Shown here in pieces: positions 787-20,000 of a stretch of 20,000 nucleotides of DNA. The notes below the pieces were generated by a model. It ran no database searches. It was not told the DNA's origin and was given only the letters and a program-made list of their open reading frames with translations. Numbering within the stretch: the first letter of the stretch is position 1; every line of letters begins with the position of its first letter. Position numbers and translations under genes: made by a program. Source of the DNA: an uncultured virus (IMG/VR IMGVR_UViG_3300017783_005492) (lineage: Duplodnaviria > Heunggongvirae > Uroviricota > Caudoviricetes); the IMG/VR virus record IMGVR_UViG_3300017783_005492; one strand, written 5' to 3'.

Positions 787-1230
787 ATGGCAACTAAAAT
801 ATTATCAAGAGAAGATGGAAACTTATCAGGTAGTACGCTGATAGGATCTAGATCTCAAGAATATGGTGACATTGACTTAACGTTTAATAATAAGCCAAGC
901 GGTGACATTTTCAAAAAGTCTGCGGCCGGGGCAGTTAAACAAGCTGTTAAAAATTTACTTTTAACAAACTTTAATGAAAAACCTTTTAGGCCTAACTTTG
1001 GTGGAGATCTAAATAATCTTTTATTTGAATTGGCTGATGAAGATATTGATTACGATGTTGAAGAACAAATTATAAGAGCAGTAGAAAACTTTGAGCCACG
1101 TGCTAAAATTCTAAAGGTAGAATCTAATACACAGCTTGATAGAAATGAATTAAAAGTAAAGGTTACTTTTCTTGTAAAAAACCTCAACGAGGTCGTAGAA
1201 TTTGAAACCGCATTGTCGAGGTTGAGATAA
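787..1230 (+). CDS. gp25: baseplate wedge subunit gp25 (GPW/gp25 family)
   Basis: 147 aa with DIDLTF...AVKQAVKNLLLTNFNEKPFRPNFGGDL...LFE...IIRAVENFEPRAKI, the typical gp25 signature; immediately precedes gp6. Confidence 0.93.
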   Translation: MATKILSREDGNLSGSTLIGSRSQEYGDIDLTFNNKPSGDIFKKSAAGAVKQAVKNLLLTNFNEKPFRPNFGGDLNNLLFELADEDIDYDVEEQIIRAVENFEPRAKILKVESNTQLDRNELKVKVTFLVKNLNEVVEFETALSRLR

Positions 1231-3069: not shown

Positions 3070-4037
3070 TGACAACACAAACAGAAGAAGTATTTTTTAA
3101 TAGACGTAATCTTGTTTTCCATACAGACGTGGTTGAACAAGTATTGCCAGAATATTTTCAAAGAGATTATCCTAATCTTATAAAATTCATGAATGCTTAT
3201 TACTCATTTATGGATTCAGATGAGCTTACAGATTCTCTTAAAGACTTATACGCGATTAGAGATATCGAATCTTCTTCTGCTAAACAGTTAGATCAAATAT
3301 TTGCAGAAATTGCTCAAGGCGCATCAGCTTCATACTTTGCAGATTCGCGAGAAGCATTAAGAAACTTTGCTAACTTTTTTAGAGTTAAAGGTAGCTTATA
3401 TTCTGCTGAAGGTTTTTTTAGAGCATTTTTTAATGAAACAGTAGAAATTCAATTTCCAAAAGAACAAATGTTTAGAATAGATGATTCTTTAATTGGTGCT
3501 GAATCTCTTAAATATATACAAAACGCAGGATTATATCAAATTTTTTCTGTGTTAATTAAATCTTCTGTTCCAATTATTAGATGGAAAGAATTATATAGAA
3601 GGTTTGTACACCCTGCAGGATTTTTTCTTGGAGGTGAAGTTTCACTTGAAATACAGGCGCAATCCATATTTGATGTTAATGGAACACAACCAACAGTTGT
3701 GCTTATTGATTCTGCCTCATTGGCAAGAACAAGCGAAGCGTTTGCAACATTGGATGCTCCACAAGCATTCCATGAAGTAGTCGGTGAATTTGAAGATGGT
3801 ATTGACGGAGATAGCGATGTGACTAGAGCAAGGTTTGTACAGATTAATAGATATTCAAATATGTCTATTCAAGAGCTTATAAATTCTTATGGAAACTTTG
3901 CACCTGGAACTGACGGTATTTTGGACGTTAACTCTCCAACATTAGATGAAGATACAGGAAGAACTCCTGGATTACTTAAAATATCCAATGCGATTGAAAC
4001 AATGGATCTAGATCGCTTCGAACTGTATGATAGTTGA
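3069..4037 (+). CDS. gp7: baseplate wedge protein, short gp7-like
   Basis: Coupled to gp6 by a TAATG overlap. LPEYFQRDYPNLIKFMNAYYSFM, FFRVKGSLYSAEGFFRAFFNE and YQIFSVLIKS...WKELYRRFVHPAGFFLGGEV match the conserved N- and C-terminal motifs of gp7-like proteins in T4-like phages. Confidence 0.72.
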   Translation: MTTQTEEVFFNRRNLVFHTDVVEQVLPEYFQRDYPNLIKFMNAYYSFMDSDELTDSLKDLYAIRDIESSSAKQLDQIFAEIAQGASASYFADSREALRNFANFFRVKGSLYSAEGFFRAFFNETVEIQFPKEQMFRIDDSLIGAESLKYIQNAGLYQIFSVLIKSSVPIIRWKELYRRFVHPAGFFLGGEVSLEIQAQSIFDVNGTQPTVVLIDSASLARTSEAFATLDAPQAFHEVVGEFEDGIDGDSDVTRARFVQINRYSNMSIQELINSYGNFAPGTDGILDVNSPTLDEDTGRTPGLLKISNAIETMDLDRFELYDS

Positions 4038-4045
4038 TATAAATA
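4038..4045 (+). promoter_or_regulatory. T4-type late promoter (TATAAATA)
   Basis: Exact consensus directly after the gp7-like stop; AGGTGA ribosome-binding site and ATG 4074 follow. Confidence 0.85.
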
Positions 4046-4073
4046 ACAATAAGAATTTTCAATAGGTGATTGA

Positions 4074-5060
4074 ATGGCACGGCAAAACTTAGGCACTGGC
4101 AGTACCGCAAATGACGGTACAGGAGATACACTCCGAGCAGCTGCCACTAAAATTAACTCAAACTTTGTAGAACTTTACCAAAAGCTTGGTGGAGATTCTG
4201 ATTTATTGTCAGGTGAGTTATCTGTTACAGCAAACGGTATTCAGTTTGAAGGCACTACTGATGATAACTTTGAAACTACACTAAAAGCAGTTGATCCGGA
4301 TTCTGATAGAACAATTAGGTTACCTAATGCAGATGGTGAAATTATTACTGATTCTGCAACTCAAACAATAATTAATAAAACTCTTATTTCTCCAGTTCTT
4401 GGTGCACCTCAAATTCATGATTTAGATTCCTCTCATCAATATATTCTTAAAGCAGGTTCACTAACATCAGATCATAATGTTAACATCCCTTCACTTACTG
4501 ATAGTGATACATTTACATTTTTGAAGTCTACACAAACTTTAGAAAATAAAACTTTAGATTCTGCAACAATTAACAACCCAGCTATTACTGGAAAAATAAA
4601 TGATGTTAACGGTGCTGAGCTATTAAAGATAACGGCTACAGCATCAGCAGTAAATGAAGTCACACTAACTAATGCTGCAACTGCAGGAAAACCTGAACTA
4701 GCGGCGTCAGGAAGCGATACAGATATTAACTTAAAGCTTTCACCTAAAGGCTTAGGATCAGTTGAAGTACAAAAGATTGCTACAACTGTTACTGAAATGA
4801 CTTCTGCTGGTACTGCACCAAGTGCAACTTCTTATGTAATTATTAATATAGGAACTGCTTCAGCAATTGGTCTAGCAGATGGAACCACTATTGGAGAACA
4901 AAAGATTTTTACAAACAAAGGTGCTGGTATAGCAACTATCACACCTACCTCATTCGGTCCAGGCGCTGATATTGTATTGGACCAAACCGATGGTTGCATT
5001 TTAATTTGGGATAATACCAATTGGCAGATTATTGGCCAATACGGTGCTACGGTAGTATAG
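4074..5060 (+). CDS. baseplate wedge/tail-fibre connector-like protein (gp9/gp10-type N-terminus)
   Basis: N-terminus MARQNLGTGSTANDGTGDTLRAAATKINSNFVELY is the gp9/gp10 DGTGDTLR..KIN.NF.ELY motif, followed by fibre-like TQTLxNKTL repeats. Confidence 0.75.
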   Translation: MARQNLGTGSTANDGTGDTLRAAATKINSNFVELYQKLGGDSDLLSGELSVTANGIQFEGTTDDNFETTLKAVDPDSDRTIRLPNADGEIITDSATQTIINKTLISPVLGAPQIHDLDSSHQYILKAGSLTSDHNVNIPSLTDSDTFTFLKSTQTLENKTLDSATINNPAITGKINDVNGAELLKITATASAVNEVTLTNAATAGKPELAASGSDTDINLKLSPKGLGSVEVQKIATTVTEMTSAGTAPSATSYVIINIGTASAIGLADGTTIGEQKIFTNKGAGIATITPTSFGPGADIVLDQTDGCILIWDNTNWQIIGQYGATVV

Positions 5061-5068
5061 GATAAAAC

Positions 5069-6469
5069 ATGGCTGCGATTATTACAGATAGACTTAAAAG
5101 ACAATTCATTAATCATTTATTTGATGATGTGTTAGACTCTAGTAACAACTACTATGTTGGGATTGGAAGATCTGAACCTTGGGATTCCAACGATGCTGCA
5201 CCTACACCAATTAAGTCTCAAAGAGATGAAAGAAATGCACGCTTAGGAATGCAAGCAGTAAAGACTGCTGAAACAGTTTCCTTTGTTGTTCCTCGACATA
5301 ACTGGTCGTCTGGTACTATTTACAGCGCATTTGATGATGCGTATGCTGCATATCCAACCAATCCATATTATGTTCTTACAGATGAAAACTCTGTGTATAT
5401 GTGTATTCAACCAGGTCTAAACGCGGCTGGATCATCAGTGACATCAACGGTTAAACCAACCGGTACAAATTCTAGACCAATTTCGACTGCAGATGGTTAC
5501 ATTTGGAAATACTTATACACTATCGGTGCGCTTGATGGTACTAAATTTACTTCAGCAAATTTCATTCCTGTAACTAAAGTTAATGATTCAGCAGGAACTC
5601 CAGGATTATCTGCTTTGCAGGTTAACCAAAGGCTTGTGCAAGAAGCAGCAACTCAAGGAGAAATTATTTCTATACAGTTAATAAATGCTGGCAGTGGATA
5701 CACAGGAACTCCTACAATACAAATTACAGGAGATAACTCTGGCAAGCAGGCTGCTGCGACGGCTACAGTTTCAAATGGAATAGTAACTAAAATTGAAATG
5801 AATGATTCCGGAGCAGGTTCTAAAACAGGACATGCATTTGGATCCGGATACACTAGAGCTGATATTTCAATTAATGGTGGCGGTGGTACAGGTGCTACTG
5901 CTAGAGCAGTCTTTGGACCAGACTCTGGCGTTGGTGCAGATCCAAGAGAAGACTTAAGATCATTTTCATTAATGTTTAACTCAAGAATTGCTGGTGATGA
6001 AAATGATATTCTAAAAGTTGGTAACGACTTTAGACAAACACTATTGCTTAAAAATGTCGAAGCAGATAGTGCTGGTGGAGATGGACCACTATACGTTGCA
6101 GATGTTGGAAACACGTTGAATTATCTAAAACTTTCAACTGTATCAACACCATTTACTGTTGATAGAACAATCCTTGGAGCCTCATCCTCAGCTAAAGGTT
6201 TAGTTGATTTTGTAGATTCAAGTAGAATTTATTACCATCAATCAGAAGTAACCGGCTTTGGTATTTTCCAAGAAGGAGAAGTCCTCACTGAACAAAATGG
6301 TAATGGAGATGGCATTGTTGAAAACGCTGCCACTGATTCTGATACATTTGCATATAGATTCCCAGACGTAAATCCCTTTTCAGGGGAGTTACTATATATT
6401 GATAATAGATCACCAATTGAAAGGTCTAATGACCAAACAGAGGACATTAAAGTTGTGATTCAACTCTAA
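5069..6469 (+). CDS. gp8: baseplate wedge subunit gp8
   Basis: YYVGIGRSEPW, VVPRHNWSSGTIY, YYVLTDENSVYMCI, TADGYIWKYLYTI, NDFRQ and C-terminal SGELLYIDNRSPIERSNDQTEDIKVVIQL are characteristic of gp8 in T4-like phages. Confidence 0.9.
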   Translation: MAAIITDRLKRQFINHLFDDVLDSSNNYYVGIGRSEPWDSNDAAPTPIKSQRDERNARLGMQAVKTAETVSFVVPRHNWSSGTIYSAFDDAYAAYPTNPYYVLTDENSVYMCIQPGLNAAGSSVTSTVKPTGTNSRPISTADGYIWKYLYTIGALDGTKFTSANFIPVTKVNDSAGTPGLSALQVNQRLVQEAATQGEIISIQLINAGSGYTGTPTIQITGDNSGKQAAATATVSNGIVTKIEMNDSGAGSKTGHAFGSGYTRADISINGGGGTGATARAVFGPDSGVGADPREDLRSFSLMFNSRIAGDENDILKVGNDFRQTLLLKNVEADSAGGDGPLYVADVGNTLNYLKLSTVSTPFTVDRTILGASSSAKGLVDFVDSSRIYYHQSEVTGFGIFQEGEVLTEQNGNGDGIVENAATDSDTFAYRFPDVNPFSGELLYIDNRSPIERSNDQTEDIKVVIQL

Positions 6470-6484
6470 TAGGTAAAAAATAAG

Positions 6485-9400
6485 ATGGCTGTTGATTTTA
6501 CGAAAAAAATATTTTCGGATACATATAGAGACGATTTCAGAGATAGCGATAACTATCATCGTATTCTCTTTAACTCGGGTCGAGCATTGCAAGCTAGAGA
6601 GCTTACGCAAATGCAGACTATTATACAAAGAGAAATTGAAACGTTTGCTTCAAACATTTTCAAAGAAGGTGCTGCAGTAAATCCAGGTGGAATTACTATT
6701 AACAAAGAATACGAGTTTATTAAGCTAGATACTTCTGTAAATATTTTTAGAACAGACCCTAACGATTATAATAACATAGAATTTACAGGAGCAACTTCAG
6801 GAGTTAAAGCTGTAGTCATTGAAGCTGTTGCCGCGGGTTCAGTCGATCCTGCAACACTATATCTTAGATACACTAAAACTTCAACAGGAACTTCATCTAC
6901 TAGTCCTATTAGATTTACTCCTGGTGAGGAAATTTCTGGAGGAGGATTTACTCTTACAGTTCAAACAACAAACACTGTTGCTAATCCGTCATCAGGTATG
7001 GGTACCCGAGCTTCTGTTAATACCGGATCATTCTTTGTACAAGGCCACTTCGTTTTCTTCGAAGACCAATCAATCATTCTTTCAAAATATAGCAATACTG
7101 TAACAGCGACTGTTGGATTCAAGGTAATTCAAGATATTGTAAAAGCATCAGACAATGAAGCTTTATATGATAATCAAGGAGCAATTCCTAATAAGGCAGC
7201 AGCAGGTGCTGATCGATATAGAATTAGACTAGAGTTAATTGACAAAGCCAATGTTGATTCTGATGAAAATTTTGTTTTTTATGCTAATGTAATTAATGGT
7301 TCCGTTTCTGAATTTGCAAATGGAACAAATCAATATGCAAAAATTGCAGACTATGTTTCACAAAGAGCATATGAAACAAATGGTAACTTTAGTGCTAAGC
7401 AGTTTAGAGTTAAATTTGACGAGAATGATTCTGATAACACTAAACTTGATGTAGATGTTTCTGCTGGTGTGGCTTATGTTAATGGCTATCGCGCTGAAAG
7501 CATGATTCCTAAAACAATTACTATTAATAAAGCACAAGAAACTACTGATCTTAATAACCAGGTTGTTGCTGCAAACTTTGGTAACTTTGTTGAACTTGAC
7601 TCAACAAACGATCCAAGACTAGAGGTGATGTTTAAGAGGCTTCCTAATCTAAACGCCTATCAAGTTAGAAATTTAAGAGATTCTGCTAATCACTTAGGCG
7701 CAACAATTGGTACTGCAAGAGCAAGATATATTGAAGAAGATGGTGCAGATTATAAGTACTATCTTTTTGATATTTCAATGAATAGCGGTAAATCATTTCG
7801 TGATGTCAAATCAATTGGTGGCTCAACTTCAGACTATGTTAACGTTAGGCAAACACGAGGTGAAACTGAACTTAAAGGAGCTATTAATAATAATCTTCTA
7901 TTCCCTCTTCCAAATAGTCGACCTAAGCAAATTACAGATATTAGTCTTGAAGTACAAAGATACTTTACTGGACAGTTTGACTTTTCTGGATCAGAAACAC
8001 TTACGTTAACAGCAAACGGTGAAACTTTCGCTTCTCCATCTGAGTGGATTTTTACTATTGATTCAAGTGGTAAAATGCTTACTAATAATGATGTGACTAT
8101 CACTGGTACTGGCACAGCAACTATTAATATTTCAGGCGGACCAACAACAACAAACTTTGAGTTATTAACTAAAGTTGATAAATCTCAAGGTACTGTTAGA
8201 TCTAAAACTCTAAATTCTCCTCCTACAACTGGACCAAAGGGTTTAGCAACCAATGGAACCTTTATTAAAACTACATTGGATTCAAATAACGTACTAGATC
8301 TTGCTAAACCAGATTTGTTTAAGGTAGTGCTTATTGCTGATGGTGAATCTGATGGCACAGATATTTCAAGTAGATTTATTGTTGACAATGGACAAAGAGA
8401 CAATTTTTATGCGCCAGCTAGACTAATTCTTAAGCAAGGTGCGGCGGAACCTGCTGGTAACGTTTTCTGCTCATTTTCATATTTTACACATGGTGCATCT
8501 GGCGATTTCTTTGCAGTTAACTCATATACTGGACAAGTAGATTATGCTGACATTCCAAACCACGAATTGTCAAATGGAACTGTAGTTAATTTAAGAGATG
8601 TATTAGACTTCCGTCCTCGATTGAAAGACGATGCGCTTGACTTTGCTGGTGGTACTGCTCGTATTAACGAGCTACCAAAGCCTAACTCTTTGATTAGATT
8701 TGATCAAGAAACTTATATGCCAAGATATGATAAACTCATTATCAAAGAAACTGGATTAATTGAAATCATTCCTGGTCAATCAGATCTTTCACCAAGATTT
8801 CCAGAAACACCAGAAAATTCATTAGAGCTTTATAAGCTTAAGCTAAATCCTTTTACTCTAAATGATTCAGACACTGACACTGATCTTATTGAGACAAAAG
8901 TATTTACAATGGCAGACATTGGTAAACTTGAAACTCGTATCGATCAATTAGAAGAAATAGCTACGCTTAATGCTTTAGAAACAAATCTAAGAACATTTAG
9001 TGTTTTTGATTCAACAGGTGCTGATAGAACTAAAGCTGGATTTTTAGTTGATAACTTTTCTGATCAACTAGCATCAGCAGTTAATAGTCCAGAATACGCT
9101 GCAGCGATTGATCCAAGAGAAGGAATAGTTAGACCTTCGTTTAATGAAGATCAAATCGGTTTTGTTTATGACTCAGATAAGTCAACCAATACAATTAAAA
9201 AAGGCGATAACGTTTATATTAAATATGATGATCTAAAGTTTATTGATCAGCCTTTATATTCTGGTACAATTAACGTTAACCCGTTTGCAGTTATTACTCA
9301 TACAGGTCGAGTTCTTCTTTCACCACAATCAGACGATTGGCGTGAAGTAAAAAGAGTACCACCAAGAATTGTAGATGGAGGATTCAGACTTAATCCTGCA

Positions 9401-11653
9401 CAGCAAAATCTTTGGAATAACTGGGAATGGCAGTGGGGTGGAACAGATCTTTCTAATCTTGCTGGTAGACAACTAGGTCGTTCAGTTTCGTCAGGATCTA
9501 GTCAAAGCGGTCGTACTATAACCACTACAACTACGACTTCAGTTACTAGAATTGTTCAAGGTGAAACTATTCGTGAAGTTATTGGCGATAGAGTTTTGGA
9601 TGTTGCAGTTATTCCGTTTATGAGATCTAGGAAAATTTATTTTAAGGCTGAAGGCTTAAAACCGGAAACAAGACTATTCCCTTACTTTGATGAAAAAGAT
9701 ATTTCTCAATGGGTAAGAGAAGAAACATTCCAAAGAACTTCAGATGATCCTACTCAATTTGGGTCTAGACACAATAATGCAACTGAGCATCCTGAAGGTA
9801 AGTCTACTCTTATTACAGATGAGACTGGTAAAATTGAAGGATCTTTCTTCATTCCTAATGGCGTTCAAAAATTTAGAACAGGTAGAAGAGAGTTTATGCT
9901 TTTGGACATTACAGTTCCAAAGCCTGCAGATTCTACTTCAAGAGCATTTGCTTCATATGAGGCAAACGGTATTCTTGAAACTAGACAACAAACTATTAGA
10001 TCAACAAGAAGCTTAAATATTAGAACTGATACACGTACTGCAAGATCTGTAAGAAGAATTCCAGATCCACCTGATGACGGTGGCCGCGAAGGTGGTGATG
10101 GTGGCGGCGGTGGTGATCCTATCGCTCAAACATTCTATGTTCCAAGGCCAGATGGTATTTTCTGTACAAAGGTTGGTGTAAGATTTGCTTCAAAAGATCC
10201 AATTGTTCCGGTTCAACTAGAACTAAGGCCTGCTGTTGAAGGTGCTCCTGCGGCATACCAAGTATTGCCGGGAGGTGTAGTATTTAAGGATCCGGCTGAT
10301 GTGAATATATCTGCTGATGGTACTGCTATCACCTACTTTGAATTTGATGAGCCTATTTACCTGAATTCGTATACTGAATATGCATTTGTTCTAAAAGCTG
10401 AAACAATTGAATATAACGTTTACATTGGTAAAACAGGTGAATTTATTCTTGGATCTACTGAAAGAAGAATTACACAGCAACCAACACTAGGTTCATTTTT
10501 CAAATCTCAAAACTCATTTATTTGGGAACCAGATCAAACAATTGATATGGCGTTTGAATTGCACACAGCTAGATTTAGACATTCAACAGCTGAAGCAATA
10601 TTGGAAAATGCAGATCCATCAATAAACCTTTTAACAACTGATCCTATTGATGTAACTAGTGGGTCACCAGCAGCTACAGTATTCCACCCTGATCATGGGT
10701 TTACTGATGGTGATCAGGTTATGATCACCGGACTTGACTCATCTGCTAGATACGCAGGAATCTTAGGTTCTTCTATTATGGGTATCCGCGCAATCGATAG
10801 TGCAGATAATGATTTCTTCAAAGTAGACTTTGATTCAGATGCAACCAATAGTGAAATTATTGGTAACAACTTAGTAGCAATGTCAAAACAGCAACTATTT
10901 GAACAAGTTGTTCCAGCTATCGATACTCTGGTGCCTACTTCTACTAGGATTACACCTACCGGTAGATTTACTACAGGACGGTCTATTGCTGGTAATGAAA
11001 CAAAATACACAAAGGCAACTACATATTTAACTTTGGCAGGAAGAGAAAACAATTACTTTAACGTTCCTCAAATTATTCCTTCTAAAGAACAAAGAGTTAA
11101 TAACCTAGGACTTGAAAAAGCTATAACACTAAAACTAAATATGATATCACAAAGTCCTGATGTTTCTCCAGTGATTGATATGCAACGAGCTTCTATGTGG
11201 ACAATTCATAATAGAATTGATTTCCAAAGCCAATATGGTGATTCTGCTGATAGAAATAATCCTATAACGTATGTTGATGAAACTAACTCTCAAAACGGAA
11301 CGTCTCTTGCTAAGCATATTACTAGACCAGTAACTCTAGAAAATGATGCCATTGGCCTTAAAATTTTGCTAGCAGCTAACCGGCCTTCAGCCTCTAACTT
11401 TAGAGTTTACTATAAAGCAATTGGTGAAGATATACTATTTTCGGATACTCCTTGGACAGAAGTTATAAAAGAAGTTGATCAACCAACAGATGAAAATCCT
11501 TCAATCTTTAGAGATTATGAATATTTAGTGGGTGGAGAAGACGGACTATCAACACCATTCTCGAAGTTTATGCTTAAGATTGTTATGAACAGTTCTAACA
11601 ATGCTTCGGTTCCTCAATTTACTGATTTAAGAGTGATAGCACTGAGCGCATAA
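6485..11653 (+). CDS. large virion structural protein, DUF4815/VrlC-like
   Basis: 1722 aa with YRDDF...NYHRILFNSGRALQARELTQMQTI, GADRYRIRL, FTMADIGKLETRIDQLE, GFLVDNF, NVNPFAV, PFMRSR, DPIAQTF and SPVIDMQR. This family follows gp8 in marine T4-like phages. Confidence 0.85.
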   Translation: MAVDFTKKIFSDTYRDDFRDSDNYHRILFNSGRALQARELTQMQTIIQREIETFASNIFKEGAAVNPGGITINKEYEFIKLDTSVNIFRTDPNDYNNIEFTGATSGVKAVVIEAVAAGSVDPATLYLRYTKTSTGTSSTSPIRFTPGEEISGGGFTLTVQTTNTVANPSSGMGTRASVNTGSFFVQGHFVFFEDQSIILSKYSNTVTATVGFKVIQDIVKASDNEALYDNQGAIPNKAAAGADRYRIRLELIDKANVDSDENFVFYANVINGSVSEFANGTNQYAKIADYVSQRAYETNGNFSAKQFRVKFDENDSDNTKLDVDVSAGVAYVNGYRAESMIPKTITINKAQETTDLNNQVVAANFGNFVELDSTNDPRLEVMFKRLPNLNAYQVRNLRDSANHLGATIGTARARYIEEDGADYKYYLFDISMNSGKSFRDVKSIGGSTSDYVNVRQTRGETELKGAINNNLLFPLPNSRPKQITDISLEVQRYFTGQFDFSGSETLTLTANGETFASPSEWIFTIDSSGKMLTNNDVTITGTGTATINISGGPTTTNFELLTKVDKSQGTVRSKTLNSPPTTGPKGLATNGTFIKTTLDSNNVLDLAKPDLFKVVLIADGESDGTDISSRFIVDNGQRDNFYAPARLILKQGAAEPAGNVFCSFSYFTHGASGDFFAVNSYTGQVDYADIPNHELSNGTVVNLRDVLDFRPRLKDDALDFAGGTARINELPKPNSLIRFDQETYMPRYDKLIIKETGLIEIIPGQSDLSPRFPETPENSLELYKLKLNPFTLNDSDTDTDLIETKVFTMADIGKLETRIDQLEEIATLNALETNLRTFSVFDSTGADRTKAGFLVDNFSDQLASAVNSPEYAAAIDPREGIVRPSFNEDQIGFVYDSDKSTNTIKKGDNVYIKYDDLKFIDQPLYSGTINVNPFAVITHTGRVLLSPQSDDWREVKRVPPRIVDGGFRLNPAQQNLWNNWEWQWGGTDLSNLAGRQLGRSVSSGSSQSGRTITTTTTTSVTRIVQGETIREVIGDRVLDVAVIPFMRSRKIYFKAEGLKPETRLFPYFDEKDISQWVREETFQRTSDDPTQFGSRHNNATEHPEGKSTLITDETGKIEGSFFIPNGVQKFRTGRREFMLLDITVPKPADSTSRAFASYEANGILETRQQTIRSTRSLNIRTDTRTARSVRRIPDPPDDGGREGGDGGGGGDPIAQTFYVPRPDGIFCTKVGVRFASKDPIVPVQLELRPAVEGAPAAYQVLPGGVVFKDPADVNISADGTAITYFEFDEPIYLNSYTEYAFVLKAETIEYNVYIGKTGEFILGSTERRITQQPTLGSFFKSQNSFIWEPDQTIDMAFELHTARFRHSTAEAILENADPSINLLTTDPIDVTSGSPAATVFHPDHGFTDGDQVMITGLDSSARYAGILGSSIMGIRAIDSADNDFFKVDFDSDATNSEIIGNNLVAMSKQQLFEQVVPAIDTLVPTSTRITPTGRFTTGRSIAGNETKYTKATTYLTLAGRENNYFNVPQIIPSKEQRVNNLGLEKAITLKLNMISQSPDVSPVIDMQRASMWTIHNRIDFQSQYGDSADRNNPITYVDETNSQNGTSLAKHITRPVTLENDAIGLKILLAANRPSASNFRVYYKAIGEDILFSDTPWTEVIKEVDQPTDENPSIFRDYEYLVGGEDGLSTPFSKFMLKIVMNSSNNASVPQFTDLRVIALSA

Positions 11654-11883
11654 TGAACGCAGAAAATAAATTTGGAAGATTTGTTGACATTGAAGGTCAT
11701 CCTGGCTGGAAAAGAGATATGAGATCTAATGCTATTGTTAGATCTAAAAGTGAAGATGGTAACGTTGCCAGGGCTGCTAAGAAGAAAAAAAAACAAATGG
11801 AAAATGATATAAATAACTTAAAGAATGAAATAGGTGAGATAAAAAATTTGCTCAAAATATTGGTAGATAAAAATGGCACGTAG
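11653..11883 (+). CDS. small hypothetical protein with C-terminal coiled coil
   Basis: 76 aa, coupled by TAATG to the upstream gene; VDIEGHPGWKRD...AIV followed by heptads (INNLKNEIGEIKNLLKILVDK). Similar small genes follow VrlC-like genes in T4-like phages. Confidence 0.75.
   Translation: MNAENKFGRFVDIEGHPGWKRDMRSNAIVRSKSEDGNVARAAKKKKKQMENDINNLKNEIGEIKNLLKILVDKNGT
11808..11815 (+). promoter_or_regulatory. T4-type late promoter (TATAAATA) inside the 76-aa gene
   Basis: Exact consensus 57 nt upstream of ATG 11873. Confidence 0.65.
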
Positions 11884-12400
11884 AATTAAAATTGAAATTG
11901 ATGATCTCGTAGATGATTGGCGCACCAAAACCAATACGTTAAGTAATTACTTTGGCGATCTTGACGAGCTTGCAACAGATGCAGACTCTGACCTCGTTGA
12001 AGCTATTAACGAAATCAACCTTAACTCTAAGGACTCTGCTGAAATCAATCGTATGATTGATTCAAACTTAGATTCTTTTTACGGTTTATATTTTCCAGTA
12101 GATTCAATTAATCTTGGGGATTTAGCAGTTGATTCAAATGCTATTCAAGCAAGATCAGTAGGTACATTAAAGCTTCAGCTTGATGCTGTCACAGGTATTA
12201 TTATTGCTACTGATGCGATTGACTCAACTCATGTTGGATCTCTCAGTCTTACAACTGCTATGGTTCAAGACTTTGCAATTACAAATGGTAAAATTGCAGA
12301 CAACACTATTCAGTCATCGAAGTTTGATTCGACTGTTACTCTCACAATTACAGATTCTGCGGGAACGATAGTAAAGACACTAAGATCTCCGGGGAGCTAG
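11873..12400 (+). CDS. putative virion fibre/structural protein with 10-residue repeats
   Basis: GDLDELATDADSDLVEAINEI fibre-type motif followed by about 10-aa periodic units (AVDSNAIQAR/SVGTLKLQLD/AVTGIIIATD/AIDSTHVGSL/SLTTAMVQDF/AITNGKIADN); 9 DS in 175 aa. Confidence 0.6.
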   Translation: MARRIKIEIDDLVDDWRTKTNTLSNYFGDLDELATDADSDLVEAINEINLNSKDSAEINRMIDSNLDSFYGLYFPVDSINLGDLAVDSNAIQARSVGTLKLQLDAVTGIIIATDAIDSTHVGSLSLTTAMVQDFAITNGKIADNTIQSSKFDSTVTLTITDSAGTIVKTLRSPGS

Positions 12401-13350: not shown

Positions 13351-14061
13351 ATGACATATCAATTTTATAACGCATATTTTACAAACGACACTAGAAATAC
13401 TATAGAAGTGGTTTATGTAAATCCTGATAATGATGAAGACGCATACGTTGAATATTTGAAAGCTGATAAATCACAAAAGGTTTATCAAGATCTTTTGGAA
13501 ATAGTAACCGAAGATCAGCTACATGAAAATACGTATAAGCGTATGAAAGTGATGCAGGAAGATTATGAAAAAGATGTTATTGCAATTGCAAAAGATCAAG
13601 GCTTAATTTATGATGTGGATGATCTAAATAGTAAACTATATGAAGTTCTACTTAAATCTATCTTTATTGACTTTGACGCAGAAGACCATAAAGAAAAACT
13701 TTTCTTAATTAAAATTGCTTTATTTGAAAATGAAGAAATTATGAATAGTAAAAATAAAGCTCTTAAATCTAAATTAAGAAAAGCTCCGACTTTACTTGAA
13801 GCCGTTAATATTTCTACAGAAATTGTTATTGAGGCTCGTGCAGCAAATACTCCTGCCACCACCCAGGCTGAAGCATCTTCTGATGATTCTGATTCATCAG
13901 AACAACAGGATACTCCGGTAAATCTCGAAACTCTGTCTGATACGAGCAATAACCATACCAATGAAAGTTTAGATTCGGACGAATCATCTCATGAAAATAT
14001 TGATCAATCCCTAGATAATACTTCAACTGATAGTAATCTGGATTCTGATCCCACAACTTAA
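13351..14061 (+). CDS. hypothetical protein: globular N-terminal ~160 aa plus an acidic Ser/Thr/Asp-rich tail overlapping the antisense gene
   Basis: 236-aa ORF starting 2 nt after the previous stop; the last ~78 codons overlap the - strand glycosyltransferase-like gene. Confidence 0.7.
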   Translation: MTYQFYNAYFTNDTRNTIEVVYVNPDNDEDAYVEYLKADKSQKVYQDLLEIVTEDQLHENTYKRMKVMQEDYEKDVIAIAKDQGLIYDVDDLNSKLYEVLLKSIFIDFDAEDHKEKLFLIKIALFENEEIMNSKNKALKSKLRKAPTLLEAVNISTEIVIEARAANTPATTQAEASSDDSDSSEQQDTPVNLETLSDTSNNHTNESLDSDESSHENIDQSLDNTSTDSNLDSDPTT

Positions 14062-14407
14062 ACACATCACTTCTATCACCGGTCCAAGATATAATGCTTG
14101 AATTTAGTGGTGTGTGCCATGCATCTCTCCACCAGGCCCAACAAACTTTTAATGAGTTTGACAAAAACCTATTGCAATCTCCTTTTATAATAACATCTAA
14201 GTCAAAATAAATATTTGTTCCAGTGCGAAACTTATCAAACATAATAAGTTTATTTGCAACCTGAAGATCGTATTTGTTTTCTTTTATCACCACAAATTCA
14301 TCGTATTCTAAATTAGAATACGTATCAATCATATGCTTTATGTTATTGACGTACCACTCACTATATTTTGTGCCAGTGTTAACTACAATAATTCTATCAA
14401 GGTGCAT
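13826..14407 (-). CDS. glycosyltransferase-like protein (GT-A fold, DxD motif)
   Basis: Likely start ATG 14407 (MHLDRIIVVNTGTKYSEWYVNNIKHMI), overlapping the radical SAM stop. Motifs GTKYS..YV, NKL.MF, NIYFDLDVII, NSSIISW and GIDQYF are typical of small phage glycosyltransferase-like proteins. Confidence 0.7.
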   Translation of the reverse strand: MHLDRIIVVNTGTKYSEWYVNNIKHMIDTYSNLEYDEFVVIKENKYDLQVANKLIMFDKFRTGTNIYFDLDVIIKGDCNRFLSNSLKVCWAWWRDAWHTPLNSSIISWTGDRSDVFKLWDQNPDYYQLKYYLGIDQYFHEMIRPNLNFHWYGYCSYQTEFRDLPEYPVVLMNQNHQKMLQPGWWQEYLLHEPQ

Positions 14408-15461
14408 GTAATTCTCTAATCTGATGAGTTTTCTTTTGTCTATTAGAACAATTTCTAACACATTGGCCAATTGGATCATTACCTTTTATACTATCTGGTA
14501 AAGCTTTTGTAAACCAGTCTGAATTTAATATTTCAGATAATTTCGTATGTAGTACATTATAAGACTTCAAATTTCTATTATAGTCTTCGCTATAAACAGC
14601 ATTTAAGTTTAATGCTGTTTTGCTGTTTTTATATACAGGATCGTGTCTTTGCCAAAAGTGTGCGTTTGCGTGAAAACAACAAGGCATAATTTGACCATCA
14701 GGGTTAACTACAATTTCGTTTCTCGGCAAAGCCCATCTACATTTTATTTCATAAGAATTATATCTGTCTGTACTTCCAGCAATTATTCCATCCGGCAATA
14801 CTTCTCTGTCAGCAGCTTCTAAACAATCTTTTTCTCCATGTTCATTAATAAATGATCTAATTTCTTTACCTCTAAATCTATCACTAATTACAAATGCGTG
14901 AGCAATAGATCCATGTGCTTTAACTAGGTTTTTAATTTCACTTTTATATTCTTGGTTGTGCTTAAATAAAATAGTTTGAGATTTTACTAATGATGTAGTC
15001 TGACTAAGCATATCCATATTTTCTAGAACTTTACTTAAGTGAGTAAATCTTCTATATTTTTCATGCATTTCCTGATTGATTCCATCAATATCAAATATAA
15101 CTTCTAATCTAGATCTACACTTAACACCTATATCCCACCACCAATCAGCATTTCGGATACTTCCATTTGTATCCATAGAAATTAAAGTGTCTGAGTTATC
15201 AATAATATATGCAAAAATTTTATCTAAGTCTTTGCACATAACCGGATCGCCCCATGTTCCACAAAACTTAAATATCTTAATACGCATCATTTCACTAGGA
15301 GGAAATGCTTTTTTGAACATATCAAGATCCCATTGTATTAGTGGCAGCCAATCGGTTTTACCTAAACCGTTTTCGCTTGTTCTATGACATTGAGGACAAC
15401 CAGCATTACAATAAGTTGATATGTCAAGAAAAACCTTTATTGAATTAGGATTCCATTTCAT
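14397..15461 (-). CDS. radical SAM enzyme with C-terminal twitch/SPASM-like Fe-S domain
   Basis: CNAGCPQC (CxxxCxxC), FCGTWGDP, TNGS, FDIDG; C-terminal C...VNPDGQIMPCC...C...C. GGAG ribosome-binding site upstream. Confidence 0.9.
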   Translation of the reverse strand: MKWNPNSIKVFLDISTYCNAGCPQCHRTSENGLGKTDWLPLIQWDLDMFKKAFPPSEMMRIKIFKFCGTWGDPVMCKDLDKIFAYIIDNSDTLISMDTNGSIRNADWWWDIGVKCRSRLEVIFDIDGINQEMHEKYRRFTHLSKVLENMDMLSQTTSLVKSQTILFKHNQEYKSEIKNLVKAHGSIAHAFVISDRFRGKEIRSFINEHGEKDCLEAADREVLPDGIIAGSTDRYNSYEIKCRWALPRNEIVVNPDGQIMPCCFHANAHFWQRHDPVYKNSKTALNLNAVYSEDYNRNLKSYNVLHTKLSEILNSDWFTKALPDSIKGNDPIGQCVRNCSNRQKKTHQIRELHAP

Positions 15462-16236
15462 CTATTTCTCCAAAGGTAATATCAAATTCTTTTTTTATGT
15501 GGTGTAAAAAGTGCGATGATTCTCCTCCTCGAGGCGCATAATCGTCAAGCATAAAATTCCAAGCCATGCCAATATTTGTGTAAGGTACATTATATTTTTC
15601 TATCATCCATGATATAAACACTTCGTTATTAGGTCTCCAAGATCTTGAAATTTCTTCTGGATATAGATTATCAATACACGATTCTTCAAAAACTTTATAT
15701 GCTTCAGGCAATCTTTTACTAAAATTTAAGTTTTGGATTGCTTTACGATTACCTCCAATAACTCCTGTGTTAATCATTGTATCATTGCCAGACATGTTTT
15801 CTAAAATTAACATTGATTTTTTAGCACAAGTTTTTGCATATACATTCATTCTATCCCAGTCATTTGCTTGAAACTTCCACTTTAATTCATTTGCTCCAGG
15901 AGTTCTAGACATAGAATAGGCGTTAATTTTATTCATATCAAAGTATTCAAAAAAGTTGACATCTGTTTGAGGGATTACATCAAAATCTAAATACAAAACT
16001 TCGTCATATATTTTTGATAATTCTTCAAGTTTATTTAGTTTCATAAATTGAATTTTATCGTAGTCGGTTTCTTTTATAATGTATAGTTTATAATCAGCGC
16101 TAACTTTTGTTGCGTATTCTAATTGTTTTGTTTCTAAGTGTAGTTTGTATTTCTTAAACTGATTTTTTTTATAATCAGTTGAAGACATATGCTCACCTAC
16201 ATTTTCACTGTATAGACTGTATATGATTCTTGACAA
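15445..16236 (-). CDS. glycosyltransferase-like protein (GT-A, DxD), paralog of the upstream gene
   Basis: VLYLDFDVIP, INTGVIGG, NNEVFISW, WNFMLD and FLHHIKKEF. Probable TTG start at 16236 (MSRIIYSLY), 8 nt after AAGGA. Confidence 0.75.
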   Translation of the reverse strand: MSRIIYSLYSENVGEHMSSTDYKKNQFKKYKLHLETKQLEYATKVSADYKLYIIKETDYDKIQFMKLNKLEELSKIYDEVLYLDFDVIPQTDVNFFEYFDMNKINAYSMSRTPGANELKWKFQANDWDRMNVYAKTCAKKSMLILENMSGNDTMINTGVIGGNRKAIQNLNFSKRLPEAYKVFEESCIDNLYPEEISRSWRPNNEVFISWMIEKYNVPYTNIGMAWNFMLDDYAPRGGESSHFLHHIKKEFDITFGEIDEMES

Positions 16237-17098
16237 AATCAAAATCCTTTTTAATGCAATGAACTAATTTAGTTCCTTTTGGTATGTATGAAAACTTATC
16301 CATAAAGTAATGCCAAGAAGGACTTAGTTTATTGTATGGTATTTTTTTGCTTATCATTAAATAGCTCCACAAAGTTTCATTATCATACCCAAATAATTTT
16401 TGTATGTAGTCTGGATATATACTATCTTGTTCTTTTACTAAGCTATCCATATACTTAATATTCTTTTCAAAAGAATTAAAATAATCAAGAAGCTCAAGAC
16501 TTTTTTTATTTGACCCAATTATTCCAGTATTAAAAACTTCAATATCGCTAGTGCTAAAATCTCTATTAAATAGCATTGCTTGTGTATTCCAATATTTTGC
16601 AGTAGGTGATCTATTGCTATGTTTTTTTGTACTACGTTTCATCCTTAGTAGAGCTTTATTATTAGTTTCAATTCTTGTTTGACTTTCAGCCGTACCTGAC
16701 ATTATAGTTAAGCCTGGCCATCTCTTAAAAAAACACTGATCTGTCATTGGAATAACGTCAAGGTCTAAATATAAAACCTCATCATATTTTTCAGCTAAAT
16801 CATATAAGAGCTTAATTTTATAAAAGTTAACAATGTTATATTCAGTGATTGTGCTTGGCATAGTTTTTGCATATTCTTCATACGCTTTATCATATGTAAA
16901 ACAAAAATAGTCTGCGCCTATTAAAGATGCATACTGCTTTTGCTTTTCTATAAGCCAAGGGGAATGTATTAAAAATTGTTCTTTTGTATGTAATGTTTTG
17001 GAAATTGTCGTATCTACATGAGGAGGTTGATAATCTAATTTTTCTTCTGGAATATCTACGTATAAACTAAAGACTACTTTATTTTTATAAATACTCAT
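16205..17098 (-). CDS. glycosyltransferase-like protein (GT-A, DxD)
   Basis: Likely start ATG 17098 (MSIYKNKVVFSLYVDIP) with AGGA 6 nt upstream. YASLIGADY, NFYKI, VLYLDLDVIP, FNTGIIG, YDNETLWSY, WHYFMD and LVHCIKKDF resemble GT8/GT34-like motifs. Confidence 0.78.
   Translation of the reverse strand: MSIYKNKVVFSLYVDIPEEKLDYQPPHVDTTISKTLHTKEQFLIHSPWLIEKQKQYASLIGADYFCFTYDKAYEEYAKTMPSTITEYNIVNFYKIKLLYDLAEKYDEVLYLDLDVIPMTDQCFFKRWPGLTIMSGTAESQTRIETNNKALLRMKRSTKKHSNRSPTAKYWNTQAMLFNRDFSTSDIEVFNTGIIGSNKKSLELLDYFNSFEKNIKYMDSLVKEQDSIYPDYIQKLFGYDNETLWSYLMISKKIPYNKLSPSWHYFMDKFSYIPKGTKLVHCIKKDFDFVKNHIQSIQ
17086..17093 (+). promoter_or_regulatory. T4-type late promoter (TATAAATA) embedded in the first codons of the antisense glycosyltransferase gene
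   Basis: Exact consensus ending 8 nt before ATG 17102. Confidence 0.7.
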
Positions 17099-17101
17099 AC
17101 T

Positions 17102-17707
17102 ATGTCCTATTACAAAGAAGCTCTTAAATCTGTTGACACTGCATTGCGTCAATGGCCGCACAATGTTGACTTAGCTTTATCTATAGCTAACCATGTAAAT
17201 GAAAATCAAATGGCAACCAAAAAGTGGTTGACTCTTGAATTGGCTGACATGTGCGAAATGAAAGAACTTGTAAATCCTAATGTTTTAATTCACGCCGGGT
17301 GGTTTGGCCTAGTAGGTGATATGATTAGAACTTCTAAAATAAAACCTAATAAAGTATGTATAATGGACAAAGATCCAATGTGTCAACCTATTGGCGGTTG
17401 GATGTATCCTAAGATTAAACATACGTGGGGTAAAATAGAAGATTGGAATCCAGATGATGAACACTTTGATATTATTGTATTGCCTTCATGCGAGCATATC
17501 ACAGATGAAACATTAAACAACTTTCTTTCTAAAAAAAATGAAAGCACTTTAGTTTGCTTAACTTCAAATAATATGCATGGTCATGAAGATCATATTAATT
17601 CTAAAGGGTCTGTTCATGATTTTTCAAATTCAGTAAAGTTAAGAATACTTAAAGAATGCGAACTTAAGCTTGATGGTTATACACGGTTCATGATCTTTGG
17701 GGTATAA
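17102..17707 (+). CDS. class I SAM-dependent methyltransferase-like protein
   Basis: VLIHAGWFGLVG (motif I-like), IMDKDPMC (acidic end of strand 2), FDIIVLPSCEHI and CLTSNNM...DHIN. Confidence 0.65.
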   Translation: MSYYKEALKSVDTALRQWPHNVDLALSIANHVNENQMATKKWLTLELADMCEMKELVNPNVLIHAGWFGLVGDMIRTSKIKPNKVCIMDKDPMCQPIGGWMYPKIKHTWGKIEDWNPDDEHFDIIVLPSCEHITDETLNNFLSKKNESTLVCLTSNNMHGHEDHINSKGSVHDFSNSVKLRILKECELKLDGYTRFMIFGV

Positions 17708-17742: not shown

Positions 17743-18093
17743 ATGGCACAGCAAGAAGAAATCACAATAGATCAAGGTACAGATGTAACGATAAAGCTAG
17801 AGCTTGTCGACATTGACGGTAATAAGAAAAATTTGCTAGACTATTCTGTTGCAGCAAAAATGAAAAAAACTTATAACACACCTGATTCAGATGCAACAGT
17901 ATTTACATCGTCAGTTATCTCTCCCGAAACTGATGGTATAGTAGAACTAACACTAAATAATGCTACTACTGCTGCATTAAAAAATGGACGATACGTATAT
18001 GATGTAGAGATCTCTTTCCAAGATAGTAATACAAACACGGTGATCGAAAGAATCCTTGAAGGACAAATTACAGTAACGCCAGGCGTTACTTGA
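17743..18093 (+). CDS. small virion structural/adaptor protein (BppU N-terminal-like beta domain)
   Basis: IDQGTD...L.DYSVAAKMKK...G.VELTL...GRYVYDVEI...RILEGQITVTPGVT, a common small structural protein found before fibre genes in T4-like phages. Confidence 0.65.
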   Translation: MAQQEEITIDQGTDVTIKLELVDIDGNKKNLLDYSVAAKMKKTYNTPDSDATVFTSSVISPETDGIVELTLNNATTAALKNGRYVYDVEISFQDSNTNTVIERILEGQITVTPGVT

Positions 18094-18108: not shown

Positions 18109-20000
18109 ATGGCTGAAATCATTGTAAGTGCAGGGAAAACACGAGTACGTCAAGTAACTAAAGTTGTTGTTCCTGGCAATAAGACTATCGTAAAGAAAGT
18201 CGTTGTTGGTACGCCAATTAAAACAGGCATTGCTGCGCAAGGTTTCTTAGTCAATCTTTCAGATGTAGATGGAAGTAATAACTTAAGCGAAGGATCATTT
18301 CTTCGCTATGATTCTGCACAATCAAAATTCAAACACGTAAGCTTAGCTCAGGCTATTGGACAAAATGTTTCAGTTAATAGCACTGGTGACTTTGCATCAC
18401 TTGCATTTGATTCTATTGGCGGTACATTTAATTTCCAAGGTGTTAACACTTCGGATATTCGCGGGGTTTTATCTGCAAGAAAAGATTCGTCTGGCGCTGG
18501 TGATGGTGATATCACGTATGATTCTGCGACAGGCACAATTTTATTTACTGGACCAGAAACAAGAAAGCTTATTTCTGGTCAGGTCACAGGCCAAGATAGC
18601 ACAGACTTTACTTACGATTCTGCTACAGGAATCTTTACCTTCAATGATTCCAACTTTGGCAGAACCGATTTCCGTTCGACATATCACGAAGGTATAGCTT
18701 TACCTGACGGACAAAATATTAGCTTTGGCACAGGAAACAAATTTTCCACAATAAAAGAAAGTGATAACAATCTTCAAATAGAAAACAACTATGGTGCTAT
18801 TGAAATAACACCTAGGATAGGTTCTAATCTTGTTATTACTTCTGCTAATAATATATCAGGCGGACAACAACTTATTATTGCCGGAGATTCCGGAGGCGTT
18901 CAGCTTAATTACAGAGATGGAGACAGAAGACTAACAACAACAGATTCCGGTATTACTATTAGTGGTAATATCTTTGTTGATTCAAATGCGTTAGTTGATG
19001 GTACTCTCACTGTAAGACAAGGTGTAACATTACAAAGCACATTAGATGTAACAGATTCTTCAAGAATTAGAGATAACCTTACCGTTGATTCCAATCTTAA
19101 TGTAGGTGGCAACATCACATTAGCAGGAACACTTACCGGTAGCATTAGTGCAGCCAATGTAAGGGAACATTTTAGCGCAGGCGGCGACATAACATATGAT
19201 TCCGCAACAGGAAAATTCTCGATTGATGTCGAGGAAATATACACCGCAGCTAATTTTGACTCTGACTTCAGAGTTAGACTACTTTCAACAACAACAGATT
19301 CTATTGCAGAAGGAACAAATTTATATTACACTACAGCAAGAGCTGATAGTGATGCAAAGAGATCCATTAGTGTTGTAGATGCTGGTGGTGATGGTTCACT
19401 TGAATACAATGAAACTACTGGTGTTATTACATACACTGGAGCTACACCAGATTCAGTAAGATCTCATTTTAGTGCTGGTGCTAGTTTAACTTATGATTCT
19501 TCTACAGGAAAATTTACAACAAATCAAGCATTAGACTCAAATAGTAATGTTAGATTTCAAAATATTACTCAAACCGGTCAGCTACGTGGTCCTGCAGAAT
19601 TCATAATTGATCCAGCAGCTATTGGTGATAATACTGGTACTGTTAAAATTCTCGGTAACCTTCAGGTTGAAGGTACTCAAACAATTATTAATTCTACTAC
19701 TGTAAGTATCAATGATAAAAACATTGTGCTTGCTGACAGTGCTGCTGATAGCTCAGCAATGCATGGCGCAGGTATTACGGTAGGTGGATCAAATATTGTT
19801 AATAAGCCATCATTAACATATTCACATGCTGATGAAAGATTTGTATTTAATAGAAATATTCAAGCCGATAGTTTTATTGGTAATGTTACAGGTAACGTAA
19901 CTGGTCAAGTTAGTGATATATCAAATCTTTCTACTGACTCTTTAGCAGAAGGTTCAACAAATAAGTACTACACTCAGGCTAGAACAGACTCTGATGCTAA
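18109..20000 (+). CDS. long tail fibre/fibre-like virion protein, truncated by the window end (missing from the ORF track)
   Basis: GGAG at 18099-18102 then ATG 18109 (MAEIIVSAGKTRVRQV...). Open for 630 codons to the window end. Gly/Ser/Thr-rich with repeated TYDSATG, TDS.AEG..N.YYT.AR.DSDA, GNLQVEGTQTIINSTTVSINDKNIVL and GNVTGNVTG fibre motifs. Confidence 0.85.
   Translation, partial: MAEIIVSAGKTRVRQVTKVVVPGNKTIVKKVVVGTPIKTGIAAQGFLVNLSDVDGSNNLSEGSFLRYDSAQSKFKHVSLAQAIGQNVSVNSTGDFASLAFDSIGGTFNFQGVNTSDIRGVLSARKDSSGAGDGDITYDSATGTILFTGPETRKLISGQVTGQDSTDFTYDSATGIFTFNDSNFGRTDFRSTYHEGIALPDGQNISFGTGNKFSTIKESDNNLQIENNYGAIEITPRIGSNLVITSANNISGGQQLIIAGDSGGVQLNYRDGDRRLTTTDSGITISGNIFVDSNALVDGTLTVRQGVTLQSTLDVTDSSRIRDNLTVDSNLNVGGNITLAGTLTGSISAANVREHFSAGGDITYDSATGKFSIDVEEIYTAANFDSDFRVRLLSTTTDSIAEGTNLYYTTARADSDAKRSISVVDAGGDGSLEYNETTGVITYTGATPDSVRSHFSAGASLTYDSSTGKFTTNQALDSNSNVRFQNITQTGQLRGPAEFIIDPAAIGDNTGTVKILGNLQVEGTQTIINSTTVSINDKNIVLADSAADSSAMHGAGITVGGSNIVNKPSLTYSHADERFVFNRNIQADSFIGNVTGNVTGQVSDISNLSTDSLAEGSTNKYYTQARTDSDA
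19294..19998 (+). repeat. protein-level repeat units in the fibre gene
   Basis: TDSIAEGTNLYYTTARADSDA (about 19294-19356) recurs as TDSLAEGSTNKYYTQARTDSDA (about 19933-19998). VR.HFSAG...TYDS.TGKF occurs twice in the gene. Confidence 0.7.

Follow-up and report, generated by a model that had tools for sequence, protein, structure and literature searches.

Why should Asp in a phage tail fibre be followed so often by Ser? The question is raised by the last gene of a 20,000-nucleotide stretch of DNA (hereafter the window, meaning that whole stretch) from an uncultured virus of the Caudoviricetes, IMG/VR record IMGVR_UViG_3300017783_005492. The window runs from baseplate to fibre genes in the genome of an uncultured marine T4-like myophage. 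The gene in question, here called fibre 1, is rich in Asp-Ser pairs (DS; other dipeptides are written in the same one-letter form). Its open reading frame (ORF), 18109-19998 on the plus strand, gives 630 amino acids (aa) without a stop, and the 3' end is open at the window edge. As judged from its similarities, it encodes the N-terminal 60% of a long tail fibre. The full length, 1054 aa, comes from the orthologue P0122, in which 628 of 630 residues are identical to the window ORF, and also from locus L017, part of a metagenomic contig of 150 kb, which matches at 99% identity. Those similarities are to PHROG 19195 and 697 and, by tblastn, to cyanophage and roseophage tail fibre proteins; no relative in the PDB was found by sequence, and a search of the ESM Atlas returned unnamed viral clusters only. 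The genomic position confirms a place in the fibre module, 3' of the baseplate genes and VrlC and with a small fibre-assembly-like gene just before it.

How strong is the bias? The first-pass annotation, made from the letters of the window alone, had put it at 24 DS among 51 Asp, where about 6 would be expected at a Ser content of about 11%. It had added that DT never occurs, ES occurs once and SD about seven times, that the Ser codons of the pairs divide into TCN (19) and AGY (5), and that the choice of residue after DS is broad. An exact recount agrees on every point, the codon split included. The 630 residues hold 51 Asp, 71 Ser (11.3%) and 71 Thr, and DS occurs 24 times against 5.75 expected. 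DT (5.75 expected) and DD (4.13 expected) are both absent, ES is found once (1.92 expected) and SD 7 times (5.75 expected). None of 20,000 residue shuffles reached 24 DS, the highest holding 15. The residue that follows is A in five cases, S and N in four each, D in three, I and G in two each, and T, V, F and L in one each. Over the full length of P0122 there are 42 DS (10.9 expected), with two DT and two ES.

Could such an excess be an artefact of repeats, of composition or of a DNA-level motif? There are grounds for asking. At least 9 of the 24 sites lie in overt repeats, which segment BLAST resolves into a Y-D-S-x-T-G hairpin module and a T-D-S-x-A-E-G...A-R-x-D-S-D module. Furthermore, the codon pair GAY-TCN spells GANTC, the target of the CcrM-type methylases of Alphaproteobacteria, and for that reason a DNA-motif test was made. 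When the later copy of each internal repeat is hidden (127 residues masked, 503 kept), 16 DS remain against 4.0 expected (binomial P 4e-7), with no DT against 3.7. The excess thus outlasts the collapsing of repeats, a check that had been proposed with the original claim, and a repeat artefact is ruled out. DNA-level selection for GANTC is likewise ruled out by codon phase: 19 of the 20 GANTC sites in the gene fall in phase 0, the single exception lying in phase 1 (phase 2 holds none). The pairs GAA/GAG-TCN, which encode ES, are not enriched, and AGY codons serve at 5 of the 24 DS sites. Because GANTC is almost entirely in phase 0 and ES is not enriched, the signal is to be placed at the amino-acid level, where it is under selection, as the first-pass annotation had argued. 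In a second fibre, fibre 2, described below, codons switch between TCN and AGY at three of the seven invariant DS serines, which supports the same conclusion. We regard an artefact of any of these kinds as hardly credible. The richness of the gene in GANTC is a by-product of the DS excess; its density is 10.6 per kb in fibre 1 (20 in 1.89 kb) and 4.55 per kb in the whole window.

Is the bias confined to this one gene? Dipeptides were counted across 25 related loci, in which orthologues are not independent events. At least four non-homologous fibre-module proteins of the clade carry about three times the expected DS: the fibre 1-like (26 ORFs; 756 vs 215.7 expected, 3.5x), fibre 2-like (15 ORFs; 397 vs 125.4, 3.2x), p175-like (8 ORFs; 63 vs 17.7, 3.6x) and p296-like proteins (16 ORFs; 43 vs 15.2, 2.8x). 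This extension to unrelated fibre proteins of the same clade had escaped the first-pass annotation. DT stands at about 0.3x in three of the four (0.30x in fibre 1, 0.38x in fibre 2), p296 not being depleted (1.68x). The flanks are similar as well. Before DS (position -1), fibre 1, fibre 2 and p175 favour hydrophobic residues, at 1.8-2.0x; in p296 hydrophobic residues reach 1.3x and small ones come first, at 1.6x. The residue after the pair (position +1) is small at 1.5-2.2x in all four, basic at 0-0.2x and Pro at 0-0.3x. As a formula, the common context is hydrophobic-D-S-(A/S/G/D/N), from which K, R and P are kept out after the Ser.

The remaining proteins of these genomes behave differently. 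Among the other ORFs of the 25 loci, DS ratios are 1.19x for VrlC, 0.77x and 1.06x for the two glycosyltransferase-like proteins GT8a and GT8b, 1.03x for m217 and 0.81x for p314, and MT201 is at 0.16x (2 vs 12.8 expected, in total for 15 orthologues that are not independent). Within the window, the three outer baseplate proteins, pooled, show a modest excess (21 vs 7.4; P 3e-5) and five cassette ORFs, pooled, hold 3 vs 6.3. On G002, a 38.8-kb contig of the clade, fibre 1 has 34 DS vs 9.1 and fibre 2 has 30 vs 9.1. There the terminase TerL (0 vs 2.2), sheath (6 vs 3.3), portal (3 vs 2.4) and major capsid protein (3 vs 1.7) are not enriched, and neither is the tube protein. These G002 proteins, together with the window enzymes, rule out a genome-wide dipeptide bias. 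A motif intrinsic to the fold of all phage fibres is ruled out by a further set of controls: for T4 gp8, 9, 10, 11, 12, wac, 34, 35, 36 and 37 the DS ratios are 0.5-1.9, none of them significant, and the fibres of HTVC008M, S-TIM5, S-SSM4, Mosig and CRP-207 show no comparable excess.

Within the fibre 1 family, the pair is both widespread and conserved. All of 120 longer homologues have DS ratios of 1.4-3.7 (median 2.9), with a median DT ratio of 0.31. Once redundancy is removed by a 5-mer filter, 37 relatives give DS 2.58x, DT 0.33x, DD 0.43x, ES 0.35x and NS 0.81x, with F/Y/W/A/I/V favoured before the pair and A/D/S after it. Of the 42 DS pairs, 19 are kept without change in all of 16 orthologues at 55-99% identity. 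Conservation of the Ser in DS is 0.78 compared with 0.58 for other Ser (P 1e-4), and that of the Asp is 0.83 compared with 0.70 for other Asp. After the sequence NLY[YF]TxxRx, DS follows in 221 of 262 copies. A giant fibre of 2469 aa that is built of fibre 1 modules (L002/L003, 4772-12181), preceded by a homologue of p116 and distant GT8-like genes, holds 77 DS vs 26.5.

Outside the clade the picture changes. Homologues there have DS ratios of 0.5-1.2, so that the enrichment is not shared equally by the homologous fibres of all phages. Fibre 1 modules in Roseobacter phage CRP-207 gp46 (2 vs 3.7), S-CAM7 gp205 (6 vs 4.8) and S-TIM5 gp129 (11 vs 9.3) carry DD, DT, TA, NS, SE, GT, DA or SG at the positions of DS. 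Alignment to homologous fibres, which had been suggested as a check alongside the first, thus finds other dipeptides in its place at equivalent positions. In CRP-207 (L041), whose fibres are DS-poor, a putative coat protein at 34144-35199 holds 7 DS vs 2.4 (P 0.008, uncorrected).

Fibre 2, the next gene, has no detectable relation to fibre 1 and tells much the same story. In L017 it contains 33 DS vs 11.7 expected (P 3e-8). Its cultured homologues hold 3 vs 6.4 in S-CAM3, 8 vs 6.6 in S-SSM7, 7 vs 6.7 in P-SSM2 and 4 vs 7.8 in Mosig, and at the aligned fibre 2 DS sites they have DS in 1 of 20, 0 of 12, 1 of 14 and 1 of 15 cases, respectively. A search with residues 1-1200 against 1.84 billion representatives returned 150 relatives with a median DS ratio of 0.83 (10th-90th percentile 0.39-1.40). 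Clear enrichment is limited to the two closest (3.27 and 2.92, at 61% and 42% identity), and two further relatives lie at 2.0-2.3. In an alignment of 12 clade orthologues and 4 outgroups, 7 columns are DS in all 12 orthologues and 13 further columns in 9-11 of them; the outgroups have AQ, AT, DG, DV, NE, NN, SL, DP, NA, ST and similar pairs there. Conservation of the Ser is 0.67 in DS and 0.39 elsewhere (P 1e-4). From these comparisons taken together, the DS excess is a derived trait of one uncultured marine T4-like phage clade and not a requirement of the fibre fold.

Some features of fibre 2 deserve separate mention. At its N-terminus (L017 13791-14900) a unit of about 50 aa, of the type W-x-x-x-x-Y-x-x-G-D-x-V-x-Y-G-G-x-x-Y, occurs seven times in tandem; the units weakly match the carbohydrate-binding modules found in proteins with a NodB domain (E 0.007). 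In four of the seven units DS comes right after a conserved aromatic residue. Apart from this weak match, the search for a solved relative of fibre 2 gave nothing.

What, then, could have brought these proteins to the same dipeptide? A trans-acting factor would be the simplest cause, since four unrelated proteins from a single clade came to share one short motif, and their homologues elsewhere and the other proteins of the same genomes did not. The explanation that we favour, tentatively and without calling it probable, is that DS serves as the recognition site of a phage-encoded trans-acting factor, most plausibly for O-glycosylation of Ser by two GT8-like enzymes. A factor made by the phage would read a hydrophobic-Asp-Ser-small motif on the fibre proteins, and the Ser would be O-modified (glycosylated) in the cytoplasm during fibre maturation. 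The candidate enzymes are GT8a and GT8b, paralogous GT8-like glycosyltransferases predicted to be of the GT-A type, whose genes lie immediately upstream of fibre 1. Their sugar might come from the products of sugar-nucleotide genes that a clade member, G002, has in its own copy of the cluster. An enzyme specific for Ser would drive DT sites to DS, and the depletion of DT would follow from that conversion. Taken as a complete system, in which the clade would O-modify its own tail fibres in the cytoplasm at hydrophobic-Asp-Ser-small through GT8-like transferases and sugar-nucleotide genes, the proposal is doubtful, if still worth entertaining.

The candidate enzymes themselves can be described as follows. 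Both GT8a and GT8b contain DEVLYLD[FL]DVIP, a DxD motif that follows a hydrophobic strand, which is the typical GT8 context. Against Pfam PF01501, GT8a scores exactly at the cut-off, GT8b at 16.5 bits and the G002 orthologue at 21.5 bits. The GT8b family comprises 439 uncharacterised relatives, with PF01501 on 14 among the 120 listed. No solved relative of GT8a or GT8b was found, and a pattern search of viral contigs gave no close relatives of GT8a. As homologues of GT8b are about 295-300 aa long, its true start is probably some 20 codons further in than the predicted one. In 18 of the 26 loci examined, namely every one with enough flank, the GT8 pair, m217, MT201 and p116 lie directly 5' of fibre 1; the remaining 8 end within 1.6 kb upstream of fibre 1, and p116 is directly 5' of it in every related locus with an upstream flank. 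The G002 cluster (L039/L040, 17977-25299) encodes an epimerase/dehydratase (NAD), a PfkB sugar kinase, a HAD phosphatase, a cupin and two carbamoyltransferases. Its set of kinase, phosphatase and epimerase presumably resembles that of ADP-heptose synthesis. The same cluster also encodes a heme oxygenase and a ferredoxin-dependent bilin reductase.

Are there precedents for such an arrangement? In each of the adhesin pairs AIDA-I/Aah, TibA/TibC and HMW1/HMW1C, the adhesin is long, repetitive and rich in beta structure, it offers many acceptor residues, and the gene beside it encodes a cytoplasmic glycosyltransferase dedicated to it. The likeness here is the conserved transferase gene beside fibre 1, which is weak evidence because the block is syntenic. 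The transferases of those pairs are heptosyltransferases or GT41 enzymes; the candidates here, unlike them, are GT8-like, and the modification is a predicted one. Virus-encoded glycosyltransferases also decorate the virus's own structural proteins in giant viruses, where fibrils are glycosylated, and Freeman and colleagues reportedly described virion glycosylation in mycobacteriophages in 2023. The targets in those cases are capsid and tail-tube proteins or fibrils, which are not known to carry a motif of the D-S type, and both the hosts and the virus groups differ from ours. A literature search, in which subscription journals were mostly outside coverage, returned no report of an Asp-Ser bias or sequon in phage fibres.

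Several observations weigh against a glycosylation signal. The VrlC-to-fibre block is syntenic throughout the clade, and the linkage of the GT8 genes with the fibre may therefore reflect shared ancestry only. Pelagibacter phage Mosig has a GT8-like gene that is 28-39% identical, yet none of 10 fibre, baseplate or neighbouring proteins is DS-enriched there. Only two proteins of L002 are enriched, the giant fibre and one of 217 aa (10 vs 3.5); its other fibres (1756, 472, 318 and 275 aa) are not, despite the GT8-like genes. In a published description of related clusters, such GT8 genes are assigned to modification of host lipopolysaccharide (LPS) (PMC7029224). Among fibre 1 orthologues DS is replaced mostly by DA (35 cells) and rarely by DT (4), a bias also in keeping with a steric demand for a small residue. 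In the Y-x-x-x-T-G module, the Asx position (Asp or Asn) reads DS in 104 and NS in 75 of 339 copies, a near-equal alternation of the kind expected for an Asx-turn. Lastly, many DS sites appear to lie where a helix or turn would start.

The last three of these observations lead to the main rival, a purely structural account in which Asp caps a beta-turn or the N-terminus of a helix (Asx-turn or N-cap) and requires a small, non-beta-branched neighbour. The clade would simply have fixed Asp-Ser as its favoured cap in fibre modules, no other factor being involved. In Asx-turns and helix N-caps generally, Asp or Asn opens the turn or helix, with a small polar residue next and a hydrophobic one before, and the flanks found here (hydrophobic or aromatic at -1, small or acidic at +1) are what such a cap would show. 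So would the exchange of DS and NS in Y-[DN]-S-x-T-G and the replacement of Ser by Ala far oftener than by Thr. By eye, the stretches DS-AYVLARVAEA, DS-ASAINLI and DS-NALKQASVKALETAVAG resemble capped helices, and at several fibre 2 sites the outgroups retain Asx and vary only the next residue. Such caps are nevertheless generic and use many dipeptides, and they leave a shift that is specific to one clade and limited to fibre proteins without an explanation. The same folds outside the clade manage without DS, and the account gives no reason why four unrelated proteins should have shifted together and the capsid, sheath, portal and enzymes should not. DT, moreover, stands at about 0.77x (1029 vs 1340) in fibre 2 homologues outside the clade compared with the 0.38x within it. 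We consider this account unlikely, albeit one to be taken seriously. Cation binding is improbable. Here Asp carboxylates and Ser hydroxyls would line Ca2+/Mg2+ sites, some of them in EF-hand-like loops of the form D-x-G-G-D-G-S-hydrophobic-x-Y, and these sites would make the fibres stiffer in seawater. A profile of the 16 orthologues does match calmodulin over residues 628-689 (best E 0.019, PDB), and Pfam EF-hand_7 appears on 5 of the 16 members (best E 0.021), but every match is below the significance thresholds. The loop has Gly at canonical ligand position 3 and so departs from the EF-hand loop, and most DS sites lie outside EF-hand-like loops. As for the repeats themselves, P0122 carries DS-D-A-K-x-A-I-S-V-x-D-x-G-G-D-G-S-hydrophobic-x-Y-x-x-x-T-G at about 413-470, 628-720 and 933-960, the first of which is covered by window positions 19345-19998.

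One further candidate is a known sequon. Tailed-phage virions assemble in the cytoplasm. The general O-glycosylation of a Bacteroidota host, which acts at D-(S/T)-x, is not active in that compartment (PMC8729774). The resemblance lies in a three-residue motif with Asp directly before a hydroxyl residue, and 29 of the 42 DS sites of full-length fibre 1 fit the extended third position of the sequon, published as (D)(S/T)(A/I/L/V/M/T/S/G/F/C) (PMC8550257, PMC8729774). The strict third-residue set A/I/L/V/M/T accommodates 20 of 42. The Bacteroidota system is encoded by the host and works in the periplasm; it takes Thr as well as Ser, and its third position holds neither D nor N (PMC8550257, PMC8729774). 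In the fibres, by contrast, the proteins are cytoplasmic virion components, Thr is avoided (DT with none of 51 Asp in the window and at 0.30-0.38x in the clade), and D or N follows in 13 of 42 sites (31%). The mismatch with the Bacteroides rule that the first-pass annotation had pointed out is therefore real, and it extends to the avoidance of DT. The closest cultured relatives, finally, infect SAR11 and OM43 and not Bacteroidota. We hold this explanation to be close to refuted.

The features of the window are collected in Table 1. The VrlC-like gene marks the start of a host recognition cluster of the pelagimyophage type, with fibre 1 downstream. In clusters of this type, GT8 glycosyltransferase genes and radical SAM cassettes stand between the fibre genes (Zaragoza-Solas et al. 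2020, PMC7029224). The order of genes is the same here, namely gp25, gp6, a gp8-like gene, VrlC, and fibres with GT8 and radical SAM genes. The differences are that the accessible part of that account mentions no dipeptide bias (PMC7029224), and that the cultured members HTVC008M and Mosig have fibres without DS enrichment. Judged by gp6, the closest cultured relatives are Phage C48C1 (41%), OM43 phage Melnitz and Pelagibacter phage HTVC008M (about 34%). HTVC008M also has a matching gene order that includes its own "L-shaped tail fiber protein assembly" gene.

Table 1. Annotated features of the window, with fibre 2 from locus L017; DS counts are observed vs expected
Feature	Position	Strand	Remarks
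Fibre 1, long tail fibre, N-terminal part (predicted)	18109..20000	+	PHROG virion structural proteins; full length from P0122, L017
Fibre 2	L017:13791-17876		1361 aa; phrog_9851; CBM5/12-like repeats; next gene after fibre 1
gp25, gp6, wedge protein, gp9/10 and gp8 matches	787-6469		ORF similarity
Three outer baseplate proteins (322-aa wedge protein, gp9/10-like, gp8-like)	3069..6469	+	
VrlC-like protein (DUF4815)	6485..11653	+	DS 15 vs 10.0, not clearly enriched
p175, small fibre-related protein	11873..12400	+	DS 9 vs 2.3 (P 2e-4)
m217, 217-aa protein conserved with the GT8 pair	13826..14479	-	DS 0 vs 0.7
Radical SAM / SPASM enzyme	14397..15461	-	Variable cassette member
GT8a, GT8-like glycosyltransferase	15445..16242	-	Pfam PF01501, 24.3 bits; motif DEVLYLDFDVIP
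GT8b, GT8-like GT-A glycosyltransferase, paralogue of GT8a	16205..17161	-	Motif DEVLYLDLDVIP
MT201, weak methyltransferase-like ORF	17102..17707	+	Conserved 5' of p116 and fibre 1; DS 0 vs 0.8
p116, small protein	17743..18093	+	phrog_1084 / phrog_3304 ("L-shaped tail fiber protein assembly")

Two side observations concern the cassette. The radical SAM/SPASM gene has 99% identity in L017 and weak matches of 23-27% in 7 other loci, and is absent from L001; such a variable insert echoes the "radical SAM cassettes" mentioned in PMC7029224. In addition, the convergent ORFs 13351-14061 (plus strand) and 13826-14479 (minus strand) overlap by 236 bases, and the last 60 residues of the former are a low-complexity acidic/Ser tail (DSDSSEQQD..., NLDSDPTT); one end of this pair may be miscalled.

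What does this mean for the phages concerned? Glycosyltransferase genes are common in the fibre modules of marine myophages, where they are generally taken to alter the host surface. When an Asp-Ser motif that is specific to a clade, conserved and restricted to fibres stands beside such genes, the sequence itself gives evidence that the virion may be their target. If that is true, each fibre would carry 30-40 modified serines, the receptor-binding proteins of abundant ocean phages would be coated post-translationally, and the modified coat could shape host range, protease resistance or the stickiness of the particle in the sea. Both the prediction of host range from fibre sequences and the reading of auxiliary "LPS" genes in viromes would then change. 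Should the cause be purely structural, the convergence of several unrelated proteins of one lineage on one dipeptide would remain a clean example.

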